Shown: positions 3,679-54,369 of the stretch, piece after piece
Position numbering within the stretch: the first letter of the stretch is position 1
Layout: every line of letters starts with the position of its first letter
From: Escherichia coli
GTDB taxonomy: Bacteria; Pseudomonadota; Gammaproteobacteria; Enterobacterales; Enterobacteriaceae
Strand: one strand, 5' to 3'
Assembly: GCF_003334335.1 (NCBI RefSeq)
Contig: NZ_QOWQ01000002.1
Length of the DNA: 64,000 bases
Translations under genes and position numbers: made by a program
The notes under the pieces: model-generated
Seen by the model: the letters and a program-made list of their open reading frames with translations, nothing else
What the model was told of the DNA's origin: nothing
Databases searched by the model: none

Positions 3679-5327
3679 TTGGGACGATACTGAATCAGCA
3701 CCAGACGCTCCTGACGATCGATGGCATCTGCGGGCGGAATGGCGAGACTGTTGATATCTTCATCGCGGTCAACCGAAAGCACGAGAGTAATAATCCCCTC
3801 CTGACGATGTTGATTAAGCCAGTTTGCGAACTCATCACCGCTGACAAATCTCCCTTTCGCATCCGGATAATTAAGGCCGTATTTCAACTCACCTGTCTGG
3901 CGATACATGATGATGTCATCGCGTTGCAGGCTCCATGCCAGACCTGCGGCAACACCGACGCTATCAGTAAGAATATAGCGGCTTGGCTGAAGTGATTCTT
4001 GTGTCATCTCGACAAAAAATTGCGGATGTTTTCCTTCCATAACTCTGTCAGGAATTGAAAATCCTACCAGCAACGCCAGCCCCAGCGGGCAAAGCGCGGC
4101 AAAAGGCCAGGTCTTTTCGACGTTTGTTAAGGTGTACCAGCCGAAAAATGCCCATAGCGAAAAAATCGACCAGGCACAAAAGACTTTATAGCTCTCGAAG
4201 GTTTGCCACACCGGCGTGTTCATTGGTCCCCACGGGGAGACCACAAATGTGGCAATAATGCCAGTGACGCCAAAAGCGATGTTAATCCAGCCATTAATCC
4301 GCAGCGCCAGAGGATTATTTTTTGCTGCCAGCAAAGCGTAATGCGCCATCAGCATTGCCAGAGATGCAAAGCAGGAAAGAATATAGGTGGGCAATTTACC
4401 TTTAGCGACGGAGAAAAACAGCAGCGGCATTATCGTCCAGCTCAACAAATAGACGGTTGCGGAATGCTTGCGGTTTTTCCAGCCTGTGTACAGTGCACCG
4501 GGGAGTAATCCCAGCCACGGCAGGCTACCGGCAATGATGACCGGCACGTAGTACCAGAACGGAGCTCTATGTTGGGCATCATCCAGTGCAAAGCGTTGAA
4601 TATGCTCAACCCAGAAAAAATAGTGCCAGAAGTTAGGCTCCCGCTGCGCTATCGCCAGTCCCCAAGGGAGAACCGTCAGTACGCAACTGATAACCGCCAG
4701 CCAGCCGTAAATAAAGAGATCTTTCCAGCGTTTTTGCGTCGCTACCCATGGCAGCACGCTTAATACCGGCACGGCAAGGGCGAGAAAACCTTTGGTCATC
4801 ACCCCCATGCCGCAGGTGATTCCCAGCAGTAAAAATCCTGCGCTTTTGCCTTTCCACGTCTGTGCCTGCATTGCCAGCCAGAAGCTGCACATTCCCGCCA
4901 CCAGCCAGAATGCAATAAACGGATCGAGCACGGCATAAGTGCCGATGGCATAGACAATAAACAATGAGAGATAAATTACTGTGGCGAGTAGAGCCAGACG
5001 TTTATCGCGCCATAAGCGCAGAGTAAACCAGGTCACCAGCGCGGCAGTTAACAGGGTCGCAAAGATAACGCCTGCCCGCACACCAAAGTTATTCGCGCCA
5101 AATAGCCATTGCCCAATGCTGTTAATCCAGTATCCGGCAATGGTTTTTTCGAAATAACGTAGCCCTAACAGATGGGGCACAATCCAGTCGCCGGATGCCA
5201 GCATTTCTCGACTGATTTCCGCATAACGCGTTTCATCGGGTTGCCAGAGCAGACGCGTGCTGATCGGTAACAGGTAATAGCAGGCAATAAACGCGAAGAG
5301 GCCGATAAGGTAACGTACCGATTTCAT
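3675..5327 (-). CDS. arnT: Undecaprenyl phosphate-alpha-4-amino-4-deoxy-L-arabinose arabinosyl transferase
   Basis: 550-aa polytopic membrane protein ORF in the arn operon position. Confidence 0.93.
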
Positions 5328-12601: not shown

Positions 12602-13804
12602 ATGTTAAAAGTGGAAATGTTATCCACCGGGGATGAAGTGTTACACGGGCAAATCGTTGACACTAACGCTGCCTGGCTGGCCGATTTTTTCTTTCATCAG
12701 GGGTTGCCATTATCTCGCCGCAATACGGTGGGGGATAACCTTGATGACTTAGTCACCATTCTTCGCGAACGTAGTCAGCACGCCGATGTGCTGATCGTTA
12801 ACGGCGGGCTGGGACCGACCAGCGATGATTTAAGCGCACTCGCCGCTGCGACAGCAAAAGGTGAAGGCCTGGTGCTGCATGAAGCCTGGCTCAAAGAGAT
12901 GGAACGCTATTTCCACGAACGTGGACGAGTAATGGCACCGAGCAACCGTAAACAAGCGGAGCTGCCTGCCAGTGCTGAATTTATCAATAACCCGGTAGGC
13001 ACCGCCTGTGGTTTTGCCGTGCAGCTTAATCGTTGCCTGATGTTCTTTACTCCCGGCGTACCGTCAGAATTTAAGGTGATGGTCGAGCACGAAATCCTGC
13101 CGCGCCTGCGCGAGCGTTTTTCTTTACCGCAGCCGCCGGTTTGTCTGCGTTTGACTACTTTTGGTCGTTCGGAAAGCGATCTGGCACAAAGCCTGGACAC
13201 TCTACAACTGCCGCCGGGCGTAACAATGGGCTATCGCTCCTCAATGCCTATCATCGAACTGAAACTCACCGGACCGGCAAGCGAGCAACAGGCGATGGAA
13301 AAACTGTGGCTGGATGTTAAACGTGTTGCCGGACAGAGCGTGATTTTCGAAGGCACTGAAGGACTGCCCGCGCAGATCAGTCGCGAATTGCAAAACCGCC
13401 AGTTCAGCCTGACGTTGAGCGAGCAATTCACCGGTGGTTTATTGGCTTTGCAACTTTCTCGCGCAGGTGCTCCATTGCTGGCGTGTGAAGTGGTTCCTTC
13501 ACAGGAGGAAACCCTGGCGCAAACTGCGCACTGGATTACAGAACGGCGGGCCAACCATTTTGCCGGGCTGGCACTGGCTGTTTCGGGTTTCGAGAACGAG
13601 CATCTCAACTTTGCGCTAGCCACGCCAGACGGCACTTTCGCTCTGCGTGTGCGTTTCAGCACTACGCGCTACAGCCTGGCTATCCGTCAGGAAGTGTGCG
13701 CAATGATGGCACTGAATATGCTGCGCCGTTGGTTAAACGGCCAGGATATCGCCAGTGAGCATGGCTGGATTGAGGTTGTTGAGTCCATGACCTTATCTGT
13801 CTGA
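12602..13804 (+). CDS. yfaY: CinA-like competence/damage-inducible protein (MoCF-binding / NMN-deamidase family)
   Basis: 400-aa ORF recognised as YfaY, CinA family. Confidence 0.88.
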   Translation: MLKVEMLSTGDEVLHGQIVDTNAAWLADFFFHQGLPLSRRNTVGDNLDDLVTILRERSQHADVLIVNGGLGPTSDDLSALAAATAKGEGLVLHEAWLKEMERYFHERGRVMAPSNRKQAELPASAEFINNPVGTACGFAVQLNRCLMFFTPGVPSEFKVMVEHEILPRLRERFSLPQPPVCLRLTTFGRSESDLAQSLDTLQLPPGVTMGYRSSMPIIELKLTGPASEQQAMEKLWLDVKRVAGQSVIFEGTEGLPAQISRELQNRQFSLTLSEQFTGGLLALQLSRAGAPLLACEVVPSQEETLAQTAHWITERRANHFAGLALAVSGFENEHLNFALATPDGTFALRVRFSTTRYSLAIRQEVCAMMALNMLRRWLNGQDIASEHGWIEVVESMTLSV

Positions 13805-14023: not shown

Positions 14024-14806
14024 ATGTTGGAATCAAGCAAAGTTCCCGCCCTGACACGGGCTATTGATATTCTCAATTTGATTGCCCGCATTGGCCCCTG
14101 TAGTGCTGCGACGATCATTGACACATTGGGAATCCCTAAAAGCACGGCCTATTTGCTGCTTAATGAACTCAGGCGTCAGCGTTTTCTTAGCCTTGATCAC
14201 CAGGAAAATTTTTGTTTGTGGACCAGGCTGGTGGAGCTTTCCGGTCATGCGTTAAGCAAGATGGATCTCCGGGAACTGGCTCGACCGCGTTTGACGCAAC
14301 TGATGGATACCACCGGGCTGTTATGTCACCTGGGGATTATTGATAACGGCAGCGCTTATTACATTTTGAAAGTGGAGTCATCAGCCACTATCAGCGTGCG
14401 TTCCCATGAAGGAAAAAGCCTTTCGCTTTATCGCTCCGGAATAGGTAAATGCCTGCTTGCCTGGCAACCTGCAGCGGTACAGCAAAGTATTATCGAAGGG
14501 CTGGTCTGGGAGCAGGCGACACCCACAACGATTACTCATCCACAGCAACTTCACGAAGAACTGGCGCGTATTCGCCGTCAGGGCTGGAGCTATGACAACG
14601 GCGAAGATTACGCCGATGTCCGTTGTGTCGCTGCGCCGGTGTTTAACGCCAATAACGAGCTTACCGCTGCGATCTCGGTGGTCGGTACCCGCTTACAAAT
14701 CAATGAAGAATACCGTGATTATCTGGCGGGCAAGGCCATTGCCTGCGCCAGGGATATTTCACGTCTGTTGGGATGGAAAAGTCCCTTTGACTTACAAGCC
14801 TCATAA
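14024..14806 (+). CDS. rhmR: IclR-family transcriptional regulator of L-rhamnonate utilisation
   Basis: 260-aa ORF with N-terminal HTH and IclR effector domain; heads the rhm operon. Confidence 0.9.
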
Positions 14807-18233: not shown

Positions 18234-18419
18234 TTAGTGGTTATTCGCTGCCAGATCGGCTTCGCTTAGCTGGGTGGCCGCGAGCACCTGGTCACGATCA
18301 AAGCCCTGTTCCAGCATGCGCAAAGCAATTTTAATGGCTTGTTCATGCAAACCTTCTAATTTACCTTCCTGCCAGCCAATTTGATGTCCTTCCTGCCGCA
18401 GCCGTTCAGCAATAGTCAT
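18234..18419 (-). CDS. ypaA: Small protein YpaA, a diverged duplicate of the RpnE C-terminal domain
   Basis: 61-aa [64 protein letters not shown], near-identical to the last 56 aa of the upstream 299-aa ORF; same ribosome-binding site (AAAAGGAGAGATTAATG). Confidence 0.8.
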   Translation of the reverse strand: MTIAERLRQEGHQIGWQEGKLEGLHEQAIKIALRMLEQGFDRDQVLAATQLSEADLAANNH

Positions 18420-18431
18420 TAATCTCTCCTT

Positions 18432-18602
18432 TTAATGACAGTTCGGAATATCAGCATCAGTGAGTTGGGTTGTCGCCAGCACAATCTCACGTTCAAAGCC
18501 CTGCTCCAGCATGCGCAAAGCAATTTTAATGGCTTGTTCATGCATACCTTCCTGCCAGCCAATTTGATGCCCTTCCTGCCGTAGCCGTTCAGCAATAGTC
18601 AT
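18432..18602 (-). CDS. Predicted internal in-frame small ORF within rpnE (RpnS-like C-terminal domain, 56 aa)
   Basis: Internal ATG at 18600-18602 preceded by GGAGAG (AAAAGGAGAGATTAATG), the same sequence as the ypaA start region. Confidence 0.45.
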
Positions 18603-19331
18603 TAATCTCTCCTTTTGTAGTGGTGAACGTTCGGCAATCTCCTCAATAAAACGGGTGAAACGGGAGGTATCGCCGCATTGCAGCAGATAATTAAACAGTG
18701 TTTGTAGCTGGCTGTCATTAGTGAAGCCTCTAACCAAAAGCGTGGTGATCCTGTCGACCATGCCGATTAAATCGCGGTCGCGAATATGCTTTTGAATCAG
18801 TTCCAGCAGAGCTATACGCCGATGTTGCATGATCTCATCGTCAGGTACGATGGTGATATCCACCAACGGAAAAGCTTCGGTGTACAACTGCCGGGCAAGT
18901 TGCGGATCGTCAAACTCATCCAGCCAGTTGAGTGAGTACGGGTAAGGCGAGGTTTCGCCATGATAAAACAGCAACGGCACCACCAGCGGGACTCTGTCAT
19001 AGCCTTTGTCCAGGTGACGCTGCATGGCGGCAGTGGCATAGCGCATTAGCCGAAAAGCCATATTCTTTTCTGCAGAGCTTTGATGTTCAATCACGCAGTA
19101 GATATAGCCGTCACCGTCGCTGGTTTCCACGGACCACAAAACATCCGAGTAGTAAGCGCGTAAACTTTTTTCAATAAAACTAGTGGGTTCCAGGCGTAAG
19201 GTTTGCAGGTTGCAAAGCTTGCGCAGTGGTTCTGGTAAATGTATTTCGAGAAAATCCCGTGCGGTTTCGGGTGTGAACATAAAGGTTTTAAATACCGCAT
19301 CATGCGGGGAGGAGGTTGTTGATTCGGTCAT
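18432..19331 (-). CDS. rpnE: Rpn-family recombination-promoting PD-(D/E)XK nuclease (YhgA-like, transposase_31 family)
   Basis: 299-aa ORF recognised as YfaD/RpnE. Confidence 0.88.
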
Positions 19332-39590: not shown

Positions 39591-46437
<6,847 letters not shown>

Positions 46438-48941: not shown

Positions 48942-50126
48942 TTAATTCAACCGTTCAATCACCATCGCAATTCCCTGACCGCCGCCAATGCACAGTGTTG
49001 CCAGCCCCAGCGTTTTATCGCGTGCCTGCATGGCATGTAATAGTGTGACCAGAATACGAGCACCACTGGCACCGATAGGATGCCCGAGCGCGATGGCCCC
49101 GCCGTTGACATTCACTTTCTCAGAATCAAAGCCCAGGTTTTTCCCAACGGCAAGGAACTGTGCAGCAAATGCTTCATTAGCCTCAATGAGATCAATATCC
49201 GCCAGTTGCAGCCCCGCCAGTTGTAACGCTTTTTGCGTGGCAGGTACTGGCCCCATACCCATCAATGCGGGGGGCACGCCACCGCTGGCATAACTTTTAA
49301 TGCGAGCCAGGGGGGTAAGGCCTGCTGCCAGCGCCGCAGATTCTTCCATAATCACCAGAGCGGCAGCACCGTCGTTAATACCAGACGCGTTCCCAGCGGT
49401 GACTGTTCCTGCTTTATCGAAGGCCGGGCGCAATGCACCTAACGCTTCAGCCGTTGAATTCGCTTTCGGGAATTCGTCTTGACTGAAGACGAAGGTTTTC
49501 TTTCGAGTGACAACATTTACCGGGACGATTTCGGCTGTAAAAGCACCGGACTCAATTGCGGCTGCCGCTTTACGCTGTGAATGTAGCGCCAGTTCATCCT
49601 GCATTTCACGGGTAATTCCGTACTCTTTAGCCACGTTTTCGGCGGTAATCCCCATATGATAACCATGGGTGGCGCACATCAGGCCATCGCGCAGGATTAC
49701 GTCATAAACCTGTCCGTCTCCAAGACGATAACCAGAGCGTGCTTTTGCATCGAGTAAGTAGGGGGCTAAACTCATATTTTCCATACCCCCCGCCACAATG
49801 CTCTGCGCCTGACCTGCCTGAATGGCCTGGGCGGCAAGCGCCACACTTTTAAGACCCGAACCACATACTTTATTGACCGTGAATCCGCACACCGTTTCTG
49901 CCAGCCCGCTTTTTAACAGTGCCTGACGCGCCGGATTTTGCCCCAGCCCGGCTTGTAACACGTTACCCATAATCACTTCATCAACGTGTTGTGAATCGAT
50001 TTTTGCACGTTCAATGGCGGCTTTAATTACTGTCGCCCCCAGGTCGATGGCGCTGGTGGAAGCGAGTGAACCGTTAAAACTACCGATAGCAGTACGTACC
50101 GCACTGACGATGACACAATTTTTCAT
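48942..50126 (-). CDS. atoB: Acetyl-CoA acetyltransferase (thiolase II)
   Basis: 394-aa thiolase ORF ([17 protein letters not shown]...). Confidence 0.96.
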
Positions 50127-50156: not shown

Positions 50157-51479
50157 TCAGAACAGCGTTAAACCAATGACGAAAATGACACCGGAGAAGA
50201 GCAGGGCAGTGATGCAGTAGCCCATGATGTCGCGGACACCGAGTCCGGCGATTGCCAGTGCTGGCAGCGCCCAGAATGGTTGTGCCATGTTCATCCATTG
50301 CTCGCCGTAGGCGATCGCCATTACCGATTTACCGAGATCAGCGCCCAGCGCCTGGGCTGCGGGTATCACGAAAGGTCCCTGAATAACCCAGTGACCGCCG
50401 CCAGACGGAACGGCGAAGTTAATCAGTGCAGAACTAAAAAAGGTCATTACCGGGAAGGTGTCTTTGTTCGCAACATTGATGAAGAATTCGGTAATGAGTC
50501 CGCCCAGACCGGAATGCTCCATCATCAGTTGGATCCCAGCGTAGAAGGGGAATTGCACCAGAATACCGGCAGTACTGCGTGCTGCCGCGCTGATAGCACG
50601 CATATAAGCCATTGGCGTTTTATGTAGCAGCAGACCCGCAATCATAAACATCAGGTTGACGGTATTGATGGTGATGTTGAAGCCATGTTCGCTGAAGTAC
50701 ATCGCAAGGTAAGCGATACCGAGTGCGCCGATGATCAACGTCAGAATGCGGCTTTCTTCCAGTCGCTCGGATGGTGGGGCATCTTTCGGTAGCTGCTTTT
50801 GAAAATCAGCCTCTTCCATGAGTAGTTTTGGATCGATACTCACCACGTCAGACGGTTTTGGCATCATCATGCGGGTGATAAATGGCATCACCACAATCAA
50901 CGCCACAGTGATGAAAATGTTAAAACCACTGAACAGAGTATCGCCCACCGGGATCAGCCCGGCGATATGCTCAACCGGGTTGCCCGGTGTTGCAGCCAAC
51001 AGAGGCATTGATCCAGAGAAGCCGCCACCCCAGGTGAGAAAACCAATGTAGGCGCAGGCAATGAGCAACGGATAATCAGAACCGGGGACTCGCCGGGCGA
51101 CTTCACGGGCAAACATTGCGCCGACAACCAAACCAAATCCCCAGTTGATGACACAAGCGACTGAACCGAAGAAAGTGACCAGCATGACGCCCTGTACGGG
51201 CGTCTTTGCGGCGGAGGCGGCAGTACGCAGCAAACTTTTCACCGGAGCAGAGCTGGCAAGGGCATGACCGGTAACGATGATAAGCGCCATCTGCATACCA
51301 AACGCCAGCAAGTTCCAGAAACCGTCACCCCACATTTTCACCATGCTGATCGGCGTTTGTGGTGTTAACCAAAGCGCGATCACGAATGTTAGCAATGTCA
51401 GCAACATGGCAAAGATCAGTGGATCGGGAAGCCACCGGCTGACAAAACGCGTCATAAAACGCGATATGCGACCAATCAT
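50157..51479 (-). CDS. atoE: Short-chain fatty acid transporter
   Basis: 440-aa polytopic membrane ORF in the ato operon position. Confidence 0.93.
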   Translation of the reverse strand: MIGRISRFMTRFVSRWLPDPLIFAMLLTLLTFVIALWLTPQTPISMVKMWGDGFWNLLAFGMQMALIIVTGHALASSAPVKSLLRTAASAAKTPVQGVMLVTFFGSVACVINWGFGLVVGAMFAREVARRVPGSDYPLLIACAYIGFLTWGGGFSGSMPLLAATPGNPVEHIAGLIPVGDTLFSGFNIFITVALIVVMPFITRMMMPKPSDVVSIDPKLLMEEADFQKQLPKDAPPSERLEESRILTLIIGALGIAYLAMYFSEHGFNITINTVNLMFMIAGLLLHKTPMAYMRAISAAARSTAGILVQFPFYAGIQLMMEHSGLGGLITEFFINVANKDTFPVMTFFSSALINFAVPSGGGHWVIQGPFVIPAAQALGADLGKSVMAIAYGEQWMNMAQPFWALPALAIAGLGVRDIMGYCITALLFSGVIFVIGLTLF

Positions 51480-52126
51480 AAATCACCCCGTTGCGTATTC
51501 AGATCGGCGGCGACTTCAAACCGAGCTTCTGTTTTGGCACGCACGGTGGCTAAATCACACCCGTCGGCAATTTCGGTGAGCCACATTTTGCCGTCAATAA
51601 AACGAAAGACAGCCAGTTCAGTAACCAGCATATGCACCGCATGTTGCGCAGTGAGTGGCATGGTGCAGCGGCGCAAAATTTTTGCTGAACCATCTTTGGC
51701 GCAATGTTCCATGGCGATGATCACTTTGCGCGACCCGGTCACCAGATCCATCGCGCCACCCATACCGGGCACCATTTTCCCAGGCACTACCCAGTTCGCG
51801 AGGTTTGCTTCTTCGTCTACTTGCAAACCGCCGAGCACGCAGGCATCAATATGACCGCCACGGATTAGCGCAAATGACATGGCGCTATCAAACATGGCTG
51901 CACCGGGTAAAACACCGCACGGTTGCCCGCCAGCGTTCACCAGATCTGGATGCGCTGTCGTGACCGGGCCTAAACCGAGGAAGCCGTTTTCCGATTGCAG
52001 AGTGATATGAATACCCTCCGGTAAATAATTGGCGACCATTGTGGGTAAACCGATCCCTAAGTTAACGATGTCACCATCACGAAGCTCTTGCGCCACACGG
52101 CGCGCAATACGTTGTTTCGCATCCAT
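51476..52126 (-). CDS. atoA: Acetate CoA-transferase beta subunit
   Basis: 216-aa ORF, CoA-transferase family I beta subunit. Confidence 0.95.
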   Translation of the reverse strand: MDAKQRIARRVAQELRDGDIVNLGIGLPTMVANYLPEGIHITLQSENGFLGLGPVTTAHPDLVNAGGQPCGVLPGAAMFDSAMSFALIRGGHIDACVLGGLQVDEEANLANWVVPGKMVPGMGGAMDLVTGSRKVIIAMEHCAKDGSAKILRRCTMPLTAQHAVHMLVTELAVFRFIDGKMWLTEIADGCDLATVRAKTEARFEVAADLNTQRGDL

Positions 52127-52788
52127 TATTTGCTCTCCTGTGAAACGATGATGTAGTCGATAACGGCACCAGGGGTGACAATATGGTCAGGTTGCAGCTC
52201 GCCGGTTTCGACCAGTTCATCTGGCTCTACCAGCGTGATATCAGCCGCAAGGGCTATCAGGGGGTTAAAGTTGCGGGCGCTAAGTTGATAGGTCAGGTTG
52301 CCAAGTGTGTCGCAACGATGAGCGCGAATTAGCGCCAGGTCGGCGCGCAGTGGGCGTTCGAGCAGCCAGGTTTTACCGTCGAGTGTCAGTGTCTGTTTGC
52401 CTTCCTCTACGACGGTGCCGACACCCGTTGGGGTGAGAAAACCACCAAGTCCAGCTCCACCACAGCGAATTTGCTCGATTAGCGTACCTTGCGGCACCAG
52501 AACGACGTCCATCTCACCAGATATCATGCGCCGACCTGTTTCCGGGTTGGTGCCGATATGTGAAGCAATCACTTTGCGGACTCGACCATTGACGATGAGC
52601 GGACCGATGCCGGTATCAACAAACGCGGTATCATTGGCTATCAATGTCAGGTCGCGAACACCAGATTCCAGTAATGCTTCAACCAGGCGGGATGGAGTGC
52701 CAATCCCCATAAATCCGCCCACCATGATGGTCATGCCGTCACGAAAGAAGCCGGTGGCGTCTTGTAATGTCATCAATTTTGTTTTCAT
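52126..52788 (-). CDS. atoD: Acetate CoA-transferase alpha subunit
   Basis: 220-aa ORF, CoA-transferase family I alpha subunit. Confidence 0.95.
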
Positions 52789-52833
52789 TTTTTATCCCTC
52801 TTGCATACACCGTTGTGGGTACAGTCAGGCAAT

Positions 52834-52849
52834 AGCAAGGGGAGTGCCA
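52834..52849 (-). promoter_or_regulatory. Sigma-54 promoter of atoDAEB (TGGCAC-tcccc-TTGCT)
   Basis: Exact -24 GG / -12 GC elements with canonical spacing on the atoD strand, about 45 bp upstream of the atoD ATG. Confidence 0.8.
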
Positions 52850-52931
52850 GAATGAGATTATTGGATTTAGTTATTTAACTAATTGAATATGAAGGGATAA
52901 ATTGGATGGGGATTTATAAGGAGAATGAGCG

Positions 52932-52972
52932 GCTATGCAGAAAATTGCGCACTGTGCAAATTTCTGCATAGC
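52932..52972. promoter_or_regulatory. AtoC enhancer site: 40-bp near-perfect inverted repeat
   Basis: GCTATGCAGAAAATTGCGCAC / TGTGCAAATTTCTGCATAGC, about 100 bp upstream of the sigma-54 promoter. Confidence 0.75.
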
Positions 52973-52983
52973 AAGTTTTGGTG

Positions 52984-54369
52984 TTATACATCCGCCGGAT
53001 CGATACCGTATTCCTGGAGTTTATACATCAATGCACGGCGACTGATGCCCAGCATTAAAGCAGTGCGGGTTCGGTTTCCTTCTTGTTGTTCCAGCACTTC
53101 CATAATGATGCGTTTTTCGACGCGTTTAATTTCCTCTTTTAAATTACGCTCACCGACAGGGGCTGTTTTTACCTCGCCAGCATTACAGACTGGCTGACGA
53201 ATCTGTGGCGGAAGATCCTCAGAAAAAATGATCGGGCCTGAATTCATCACGACGGCGCGTTCAATAACGTTGGAAAGCTCTCGAATATTTCCCGGCCATG
53301 ACCAGGCGGTAAGCAGTGACATTGCCATCGGATCGATGTCGATAATATCGCGCTGATTCTCACTACTGAATTTTTGCAAAAAGTGATTAGCTAACAGGGA
53401 AATATCTTCCCGGCGATCGCGCAGAGGCGGCAGTATTAAATGAATAACGTTAAGGCGATAAAAGAGATCTTCACGGAAGGTGCCTTCTTTTACCATTGCC
53501 TGCAAGTCGCGGTTGGTGGCAGCAATGATGCGGATATCAACTTTTATGGTCTGATGGCCGCCAATCCGTTCAAATTCCCGTTCCTGTAGAATGCGTAGTA
53601 ATTTGGCTTGTAGTACCAGCGGCATTTCGCCAATTTCGTCGAGGAGCAGAGTACCTTCGTTGGCTCGTTCAAATAATCCCTGACGCAAGGTTTGTGCACC
53701 AGTAAATGCACCTTTTTCATGACCAAACAGTTCACTTTCGAGCAACGATTCCGGCAGCGCCGCGCAGTTGACTTTAATGAACGGCCCCTTTGCCCGCCGC
53801 GAATTGTAGTGAATCGCTCTGGCAATCAACTCTTTCCCGGTGCCGCTTTCACCGCTAATCAAGACGCTGGCCTGAGAAAGGGCAATTTTGGCGGTGTCTT
53901 TGCAGATGTCCATCATCGCCGGGCTGTTGGTGAGAATGTGCCCCCATTGCCAGCTGGTGCTCAGTGCCTGGTGCAGATGACGGATCTCTTTTTTCATTGA
54001 CTGGAGTTGTAAAGCGCGCTGAACGATTAAATTCAACTCATCGAGATCAAACGGTTTAATAACATAGTCGAAGGCTCCGCAGCGTAGCGCTTCGACGGCG
54101 GTTTCCACTTCCGCATAGGCCGTCATCAGAATAACGGGTGTCCGGGTCTCATGGCTGCGCATCTCCTTTAGTGCCTTGATGCCGTCCATCTCTGGCATGC
54201 GGATATCCATCAACACCACATCAGGGTGAATATCGGCAAACAGGTGTAATGCTGTGCGTCCGTTGTTCGCACAATGTGTTTCGAATCCTTGTAGTGCAAA
54301 AGCGGTGCTCAGCATACGGCGAACATTATCTTCATCATCCACAATAAGGATGCGATTAATAGCAGTCAT
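52984..54369 (-). CDS. atoC: Sigma-54-dependent response regulator AtoC
   Basis: 461-aa ORF: receiver domain, AAA+ domain with GAFTGA, C-terminal HTH. Confidence 0.96.
   Translation of the reverse strand: MTAINRILIVDDEDNVRRMLSTAFALQGFETHCANNGRTALHLFADIHPDVVLMDIRMPEMDGIKALKEMRSHETRTPVILMTAYAEVETAVEALRCGAFDYVIKPFDLDELNLIVQRALQLQSMKKEIRHLHQALSTSWQWGHILTNSPAMMDICKDTAKIALSQASVLISGESGTGKELIARAIHYNSRRAKGPFIKVNCAALPESLLESELFGHEKGAFTGAQTLRQGLFERANEGTLLLDEIGEMPLVLQAKLLRILQEREFERIGGHQTIKVDIRIIAATNRDLQAMVKEGTFREDLFYRLNVIHLILPPLRDRREDISLLANHFLQKFSSENQRDIIDIDPMAMSLLTAWSWPGNIRELSNVIERAVVMNSGPIIFSEDLPPQIRQPVCNAGEVKTAPVGERNLKEEIKRVEKRIIMEVLEQQEGNRTRTALMLGISRRALMYKLQEYGIDPADV

Follow-up and report, generated by a model that had tools for sequence, protein, structure and literature searches.

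The DNA between atoC and atoD is almost certainly the native control region of the Escherichia coli atoDAEB operon, which serves short-chain fatty acid use, and its sigma-54 promoter and AtoC palindrome are already published rather than new. We analyzed this region within a stretch of 64,000 nucleotides, hereafter the 64-kb window. Both the palindrome and the -24/-12 element lie inside the 195-bp atoC–atoD spacer, and the interval 52834 to 52972 is bounded precisely by the final T of TTGCT and the distal palindrome end. A sequence-only reading had held that the whole sigma-54 regulatory architecture was legible here, and its three components—i.e., the activator, the enhancer, and the promoter—all match published experiments. 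That reading was correct as an account of the region, although it did not recognize the element as a known one and left the IHF component unmentioned.

The ato locus and its regulator

To place the region, a 401-bp query spanning the site was searched and gave 100% identity to K-12 MG1655 and to many other strains; the matched interval carries the RefSeq annotations atoC and atoD. Collinearity with the MG1655-labeled record NZ_CP032667.1 extends over all 64 kb, with 14 single-base differences and 0 indels. None of these falls between atoC and atoD; 12 of the 14 are in coding sequence and 2 are intergenic, and 10 of the 12 coding differences are non-synonymous (9 missense and 1 stop codon, the latter in yfaS).

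All six ato genes lie on the minus strand. The sensor gene atoS (54366–56192) scored 997 bits against the NCBIfam AtoS equivalog NF008468 (cut-off 646) and is so annotated by RefSeq in the collinear MG1655 record; in the list of open reading frames, its frame is extended to a GTG at 56204. Next comes atoC (52984–54369), which encodes an NtrC-family sigma-54 enhancer-binding response regulator of 461 amino acids. The first gene of the operon, atoD (52126–52788), encodes the alpha subunit of acetate CoA-transferase, as judged from 444 bits against NF007394 (cut-off 315) and from the RefSeq annotation. It is followed by atoA (51476–52126), atoE (50157–51479), and atoB (48942–50126), each taken from the list of open reading frames and the RefSeq annotation of the collinear record.

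The identity of the activator was then examined. Scored against the NCBIfam AtoC equivalog NF008469 (cut-off 714), AtoC reached 1004 bits; its score against the NtrC model TIGR01818 was 476 bits, under the cut-off of 558.6. Four Pfam domains were found, namely Response_reg (residues 7–115), Sigma54_activat (145–311), AAA_lid_14 (317–393), and HTH_8 (415–454). The receiver aspartate motif DIRMP is at residue 55 and the Walker A sequence GESGTGKE is at residue 173. The claim that AtoC is encoded directly upstream of the regulatory elements and carries a GAFTGA motif was upheld by the frame at 52984–54369 on the minus strand, in which GAFTGA occupies residues 220–225. Only 11 nt separate the atoC stop codon from the palindrome.

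The atoC–atoD region was found in about 3,924 of 5,426 complete E. coli genomes. Put the other way, the segment 52700–53100 is absent from about 28% of them, with a few copies on plasmid-labeled records. Since the region is missing from this share of complete genomes, the ato locus is part of the variable gene pool of E. coli.

Several further features of the window were recorded. In yfaS (41818–46437, plus strand), an alpha-2-macroglobulin gene, position 45936 lies in a TGG (Trp) codon where the MG1655-labeled NZ_CP032667.1 has TGA; the gene is an uninterrupted frame of 1539 codons in the window and is annotated with an "internal stop" in NZ_CP032667.1. The annotation of the collinear record places an ISNCY-family transposase gene (18234–19331, minus strand) between yfaU and glpC, beside a hypothetical gene that is a truncated pseudogene. 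The antisense small RNA MicF (Rfam RF00033, 114 bits) was located at 63059–63152 on the minus strand, divergent from ompC, which starts at 63486 on the plus strand and runs off the end of the window. Three copies of naRNA4 (REP-type) scored 76–80 bits on the plus strand, two of them between the convergent rcsC and rcsB (59208–59284 and 59322–59398) and one in the nrdB–nrdA spacer (28958–29028).

Enhancer, spacer, and promoter elements

An inverted-repeat search returned a repeat at 52932–52972 with a 20+1+20 bp layout, in which the arms are 18/20 (90%) complementary and flank a lone central base at 52952. On the minus strand, the distal arm, GCTATGCAGAAATTTGCACA, occupies 52953–52972 (−184 to −165 from the atoD ATG); the proximal arm occupies 52932–52951 (−163 to −144) and its sequence is TGCGCAATTTTCTGCATAGC as read along the atoD strand and GCTATGCAGAAAATTGCGCA along the plus strand. 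No other repeat in the 64-kb window had arms of 20 nt with 18 or more matches, and none was obtained in 200 first-order Markov simulations. The near-perfect 20+20 bp inverted repeat that had been proposed upstream of atoD is thus real and unique in the window. Its arms needed one correction, in that the first arm as originally written was 21 nt long and included the unpaired central C. Its placement about 100 bp upstream of the promoter holds when measured from the center of the palindrome to the GG of the -24 element (about 105 bp), but the gap from edge to edge is 82 bp, a distance within the range of about 80–150 bp for bEBP enhancers. When the AtoC half-site pattern was run over the window, only the two arms matched even with three mismatches allowed (0.04 matches expected); that is, no further AtoC half-site with at most three mismatches was present in the 64 kb.

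Both arms, GCTATGCAGAAATTTGCACA and GCTATGCAGAAAATTGCGCA, are listed at these same distances from atoD as ChIP-positive in vivo AtoC sites (PMC3118216, Table 5). Counting from the atoD ATG at 52788, the listed sites are exactly positions 52972–52953 and 52951–52932 of the window, in agreement with the earlier proposal that the palindrome is an enhancer-binding-protein site. According to the same paper, which cites Matta et al. 2007, acetoacetate induction leads AtoC to bind the 40-bp palindrome and to activate atoDAEB.

Between the palindrome and the promoter lies an A/T-rich enhancer–promoter spacer of 82 bp (52850–52931, minus strand; GC 0.23–0.28), which presumably serves as the looping segment. 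On the atoD strand, the spacer contains hardly any G, and the plus-strand GC skew rises to as much as 1.0 over 52860–52919. It contains an IHF-like motif, ATTCAATTAGTTA, at 52876–52888 on the minus strand, which has one mismatch to WATCAANNNNTTR and is centered approximately 59 bp upstream of the predicted transcription start. With one mismatch allowed, the IHF-like pattern gave 58 matches in the 64-kb window compared to 56 expected. Such matches occur at chance frequency across the window, and any weight given to the motif comes solely from where it lies and from its conservation. An IHF site between enhancer and promoter is a feature of many bEBP systems, though not of all.

The sigma-54 core promoter, CTGGCAC-TCCCC-TTGCT, was located at 52834–52850 on the minus strand, with the GG doublet at 52848/52847 and the GC doublet at 52836/52835. 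It is made up of TGGCAC (52849–52844), an N5 of TCCCC (52843–52839), and TTGCT (52838–52834); TGGCACTCCCCTTGCT, at 52849–52834, is the exact consensus match that the sequence-only reading had named as the -24/-12 element on the atoD strand, and it lies 46 nt ahead of the atoD ATG, with precisely 10 bp between its GG and GC doublets. Searching both strands of the 64-kb window with TGGCAC-N5-TTGCW gave this one exact match, where 0.13 were expected and a single match also turned up in 13 of 100 shuffles. With one mismatch allowed, there were 6 matches compared to 3.98 expected, i.e., chance level. By itself, the -24/-12 motif is therefore only moderately improbable; what makes it convincing is its location, with the activator gene upstream of it and the atoD ATG 46 nt downstream. 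A scan for sigma-70-like promoters over 52600–53200 found none.

From the geometry of the motif, transcription of atoDAEB is predicted to start at about 52823–52826 on the minus strand (52823 if the C of GC is taken as −12), which would leave a leader of 35–38 nt before atoD. The atoD Shine-Dalgarno sequence read from the DNA, AAGAGGGA, is at 52795–52802 on the minus strand and is unpaired in the predicted sigma-54 transcript. The AtoC footprint reportedly extends from −146 to −107, promoter mutants are said to show sigma-54 dependence, and IHF is reportedly required. A footprint with these limits would put +1 at 52826 or 52825, within three bases of the 52823 predicted from geometry.

Published binding data for the promoter were then compared with the window. 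In a sigma-54 ChIP-seq study, site OS21 has the 17-nt motif CTGGCACTCCCCTTGCT, lies 35 nt from atoD, and is flagged as having experimental confirmation in EcoCyc (Bonocora et al. 2015, PMC4591121, Table 1); this motif is identical, letter for letter, to positions 52850–52834 on the minus strand, and the listed distance of 35 can be set beside the predicted leader of 35–38 nt. The OS21 signal at atoD is modest (FAT 5, PSSM 9.39; PMC4591121). Shimada et al. 2021 (PMC8743547) also reported a genomic SELEX (gSELEX) peak for the RpoN holoenzyme between atoC and atoD, and, according to Pilalis et al. 2011 (PMC3118216, citing Matta et al. 2007, J Bacteriol 189:6324), acetoacetate induces atoDAEB and expression of the operon depends on sigma-54.

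Two other sigma-54-type motifs in the window correspond to published sites. One, ATGGCACTGAATATGCT, at 13706–13722 on the plus strand, is within yfaY at its 3′ end and is directed toward yfaX/rhmR, which starts at 14024; it is the intragenic sigma-54 ChIP-seq site IS27 (PMC4591121), and an RpoN gSELEX peak was reported at yfaX–yfaY (PMC8743547). The other, CTGGCATGGAGCCTGCA, at 3925–3941 on the minus strand, lies inside arnT, points toward arnE, and is the intragenic sigma-54 ChIP-seq site IS28 (PMC4591121). The TGGCAC-N5-TTGCW pattern missed the arnT site since that site has TGGCAT and CTGCA.

Conservation and a proposed mechanism

Conservation within the species was analyzed using six full E. 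coli alleles with identity down to about 95%. Among these divergent alleles, the sigma-54 core and the IHF-like motif at 52876–52888 were invariant, while two spacer segments were each 81% invariant; the palindrome showed one A-to-T change, in one strain. A seventh strain, CUVM53, carries a deletion that starts inside the N5 of the promoter (approximately 52841) and removes the -12 element, the leader, and the 5′ end of atoD. In this strain, atoD is annotated as a pseudogene, and atoS, atoC, and the palindrome are intact.

A half-site scan of 100,044 species genomes, with one genome per species, returned four loci, i.e., those of E. coli, Escherichia sp. E1V33, Citrobacter sedlakii, and one Clostridia MAG. 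The Clostridia match was rejected as chance, being a lone arm inside a coding region with no palindrome. A plasmid collection searched for additional species gave E. coli records only.

The remaining three loci were aligned. As the E1V33 and C. sedlakii loci had been picked by an exact match to one arm, the conservation of that arm is partly built in; the two loci were thus selected on the palindrome and not on the promoter, in a sample of three species. In this alignment, 90% of the palindrome columns are invariant, with one arm per foreign locus fixed by the search. The sigma-54 core has 62% invariant columns, with TGGCA and TTGC fully kept, and the IHF-like motif also has 62%, compared to 59% for the 3′ end of atoC and 20% and 30% for the two spacer segments, which are the least conserved. 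The promoter of C. sedlakii is TGGCATCCTGTTTGCA, in which TGGCA and TTGC are retained as they are in E1V33 and the E. coli alleles. A motif related to the IHF-like one is found at the same aligned position in both foreign loci, as TTTCAATCTATTA in E1V33 and ATTCAGTCAGTTA in C. sedlakii. The gap between palindrome and promoter is 82, 82, and 84 bp in E. coli, E1V33, and C. sedlakii, respectively.

The arms that had not been fixed by the search were considered separately. In E1V33 and C. sedlakii, which contribute one such free arm each, all four substitutions lie between the TGCR motifs, in stretches that make up 12 positions, whereas the remaining 28 positions have none (p about 0.005, hypergeometric, calculated by hand). 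Complementarity between the arms is 18/20 in E. coli and 17/20 in both E1V33 and C. sedlakii, and at position 18 all three species retain an A/G asymmetry between the arms. This pattern fits protein half-sites in which two TGCR contacts are spaced by one turn of the helix, and it does not fit selection for hairpin pairing.

In the mechanism that we propose, sigma-54 RNA polymerase would wait as a closed complex on CTGGCACTCCCCTTGCT (52850–52834, minus strand), its occupancy there being taken from the literature. AtoS, as published, would sense acetoacetate and phosphorylate AtoC, and the C-terminal HTH_8 domain of AtoC, whose binding is likewise known from the literature, would contact the 41-bp palindrome at 52972–52932. 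Each 20-bp arm may offer two TGCR tetranucleotides 10 bp apart, and two AtoC dimers placed side by side on the arms could nucleate the AAA+ ring. The 82-bp A/T-rich spacer would then loop AtoC onto the polymerase, with IHF, which is reportedly required, possibly bending the spacer at the motif around 52888–52876. By analogy with what is established for bEBPs, the GAFTGA loop would touch sigma-54, and ATP hydrolysis would lead to the open complex. Transcription would begin near 52823–52826 and give a 35–38 nt leader ahead of atoD.

Compared with the published E. coli K-12 atoDAEB promoter and AtoC site, this is the same locus, in which the arms and the 17-nt motif are letter-identical and stand at the same distances from atoD, and the regulatory region shows no difference at all. 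The paradigm bEBP enhancer/promoter system is NtrC–glnAp2, which resembles the ato system: in both, a bEBP response regulator combines a receiver, an AAA+ domain with GAFTGA, and a Fis-type HTH, and in both, dyad-symmetric TGCA-containing sites lie about 100–140 bp upstream of the -24/-12 element and act through DNA looping. The two differ in their signals, which are acetoacetate via AtoS for ato and nitrogen status via NtrB for NtrC, and in their enhancers, which comprise one 41-bp palindrome with two 20-bp arms at ato and two separate 17-bp dyads at glnAp2. AtoC is a paralogue and not NtrC itself. PrpR–prpBCDE (cited within PMC2965739), NifA–nifH, and XylR–Pu are IHF-assisted sigma-54 promoters that share with ato the order of activator site, A/T-rich spacer with an IHF-like motif, and -24/-12 element, with a similar spacing. 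Set against such IHF-assisted promoters, the ato motif at 52888–52876 is a candidate site with one mismatch, which is not statistically distinctive alone. The prpB sigma-54 motif, GTGGCACACCCCTTGCT (PMC4591121), is nearly identical to that of atoD.

Alternative explanations and significance

We then weighed other explanations for the same DNA. The motifs could be chance occurrences with no regulatory role, in which case atoD would be expressed by read-through from atoSC or from an unrecognized sigma-70 promoter. We regard this as next to impossible, even though an exact -24/-12 match arose in 13 of 100 window shuffles and one-mismatch matches occur at chance level. The palindrome was absent from all 200 simulations and its half-site is found only at its two arms; the palindrome and the -24/-12 element are kept across species while the spacer diverges; 52600–53200 holds no sigma-70-like site; and this same DNA is where the published AtoC ChIP, sigma-54 ChIP-seq, and gSELEX signals are located (PMC3118216, PMC4591121, PMC8743547). 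Pure chance is excluded by the palindrome and half-site statistics together with the published binding data. A different possibility is that the palindrome works mainly, or also, as RNA, forming a hairpin of approximately 16–20 bp at the 3′ end of the atoSC mRNA that terminates transcription or blocks 3′ exonucleases. A 101-nt RNA over the palindrome does fold strongly (−31.6 kcal/mol; z-score −6.05; 0 of 200 shuffles fold as well), and the palindrome begins just 11 nt past the atoC stop codon. The strong fold, however, is not independent evidence, since any transcribed DNA palindrome gives a hairpin. The hairpin is followed by CGCUCAUUCUCC rather than by a U-tract, a terminator scan of the atoD strand found none, and the four Rfam matches in the window include none near 52,8xx–52,9xx. 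In addition, the arm substitutions in E1V33 and C. sedlakii are without compensation in the opposite arm, the position-18 asymmetry, which would be an A–C mismatch in RNA, is kept in all three species, and binding of AtoC to the palindrome as DNA is published (PMC3118216). We thus consider an RNA role for the palindrome quite improbable, and a Rho-independent terminator was rejected on the grounds that there is no U-tract, no terminator on the atoD strand, and no compensation among the substitutions.

A further alternative concerns the promoter rather than the palindrome. The C/U-rich segment CUCCCCUUGC, which comprises the N5 and the -12 element, could be an anti-Shine-Dalgarno insulator that pairs with the atoD ribosome-binding site GCAAGAGGG, such that RNA reading through from atoSC is silenced, while the sigma-54 transcript, from which the C/U-rich segment is missing, is translated. 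Levy et al. (bioRxiv 10.1101/086108) have proposed insulation of this kind at other sigma-54 promoters, and the likeness lies in a C/T-rich stretch in and beside the core promoter that is left out of the promoter's own transcript and is complementary to the downstream Shine-Dalgarno sequence. In the MFE fold of the read-through RNA, CUCCCCUUGC indeed pairs with GCAAGAGGG in both E. coli and E1V33, and in C. sedlakii the Shine-Dalgarno sequence has as its partner a UUCCC that lies shortly before the predicted start. The predicted probability that the Shine-Dalgarno sequence is unpaired increased from 0.20 in the read-through RNA to 0.82 in the sigma-54 transcript for E. coli, from 0.26 to 0.83 for E1V33, and from 0.31 to 0.54 for C. 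sedlakii, and no terminator lies between atoC and atoD. Yet a shuffled upstream segment hid the Shine-Dalgarno sequence equally well: a value no higher than the observed one was reached by a fraction of 0.33, 0.47, and 0.28 of the shuffles for E. coli, E1V33, and C. sedlakii, respectively, and the z-scores of the read-through folds are just −1.3, −1.4, and −0.9. The shortage of G on the atoD strand of the enhancer–promoter spacer was examined through this same shuffling control, with a negative result. In contrast to the reported insulators, then, the ato pairing is no better than that of shuffled upstream sequence, and atoD is unreported in that study, the preprint (bioRxiv 10.1101/086108) making no mention of it. 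At most, the C/T-rich composition contributes, and no specific arrangement is indicated. Because shuffled sequence does equally well, the idea is unsupported beyond base composition, and we rejected anti-Shine-Dalgarno insulation as a supported claim; that it operates here seems to us unlikely. More generally, the atoC–atoD spacer may have a second role at the RNA level, with either the hairpin or the C/U-rich segment stopping atoSC read-through from making AtoD and the sigma-54 mRNA alone being translated, which we judge to be rather improbable.

The preferred reading therefore remains that of a sigma-54 promoter activated by AtoC from its palindrome. What this provides is a calibration point, as a complete sigma-54 module, with activator gene, enhancer, and promoter, was read from raw sequence and matches published experiments. 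The AtoC footprint or EMSA and the sigma-54-dependence experiments are largely published already, and no open question was made testable. Acetoacetate biosensors employ the ato region as their sensing part (PMC7618054). For such engineering, our analysis makes modest additions that may serve as hypotheses, namely the conserved length of the gap between palindrome and promoter, the IHF-like motif conserved in position, and the limitation of AtoC half-site substitutions to the six bases between the two TGCR motifs.
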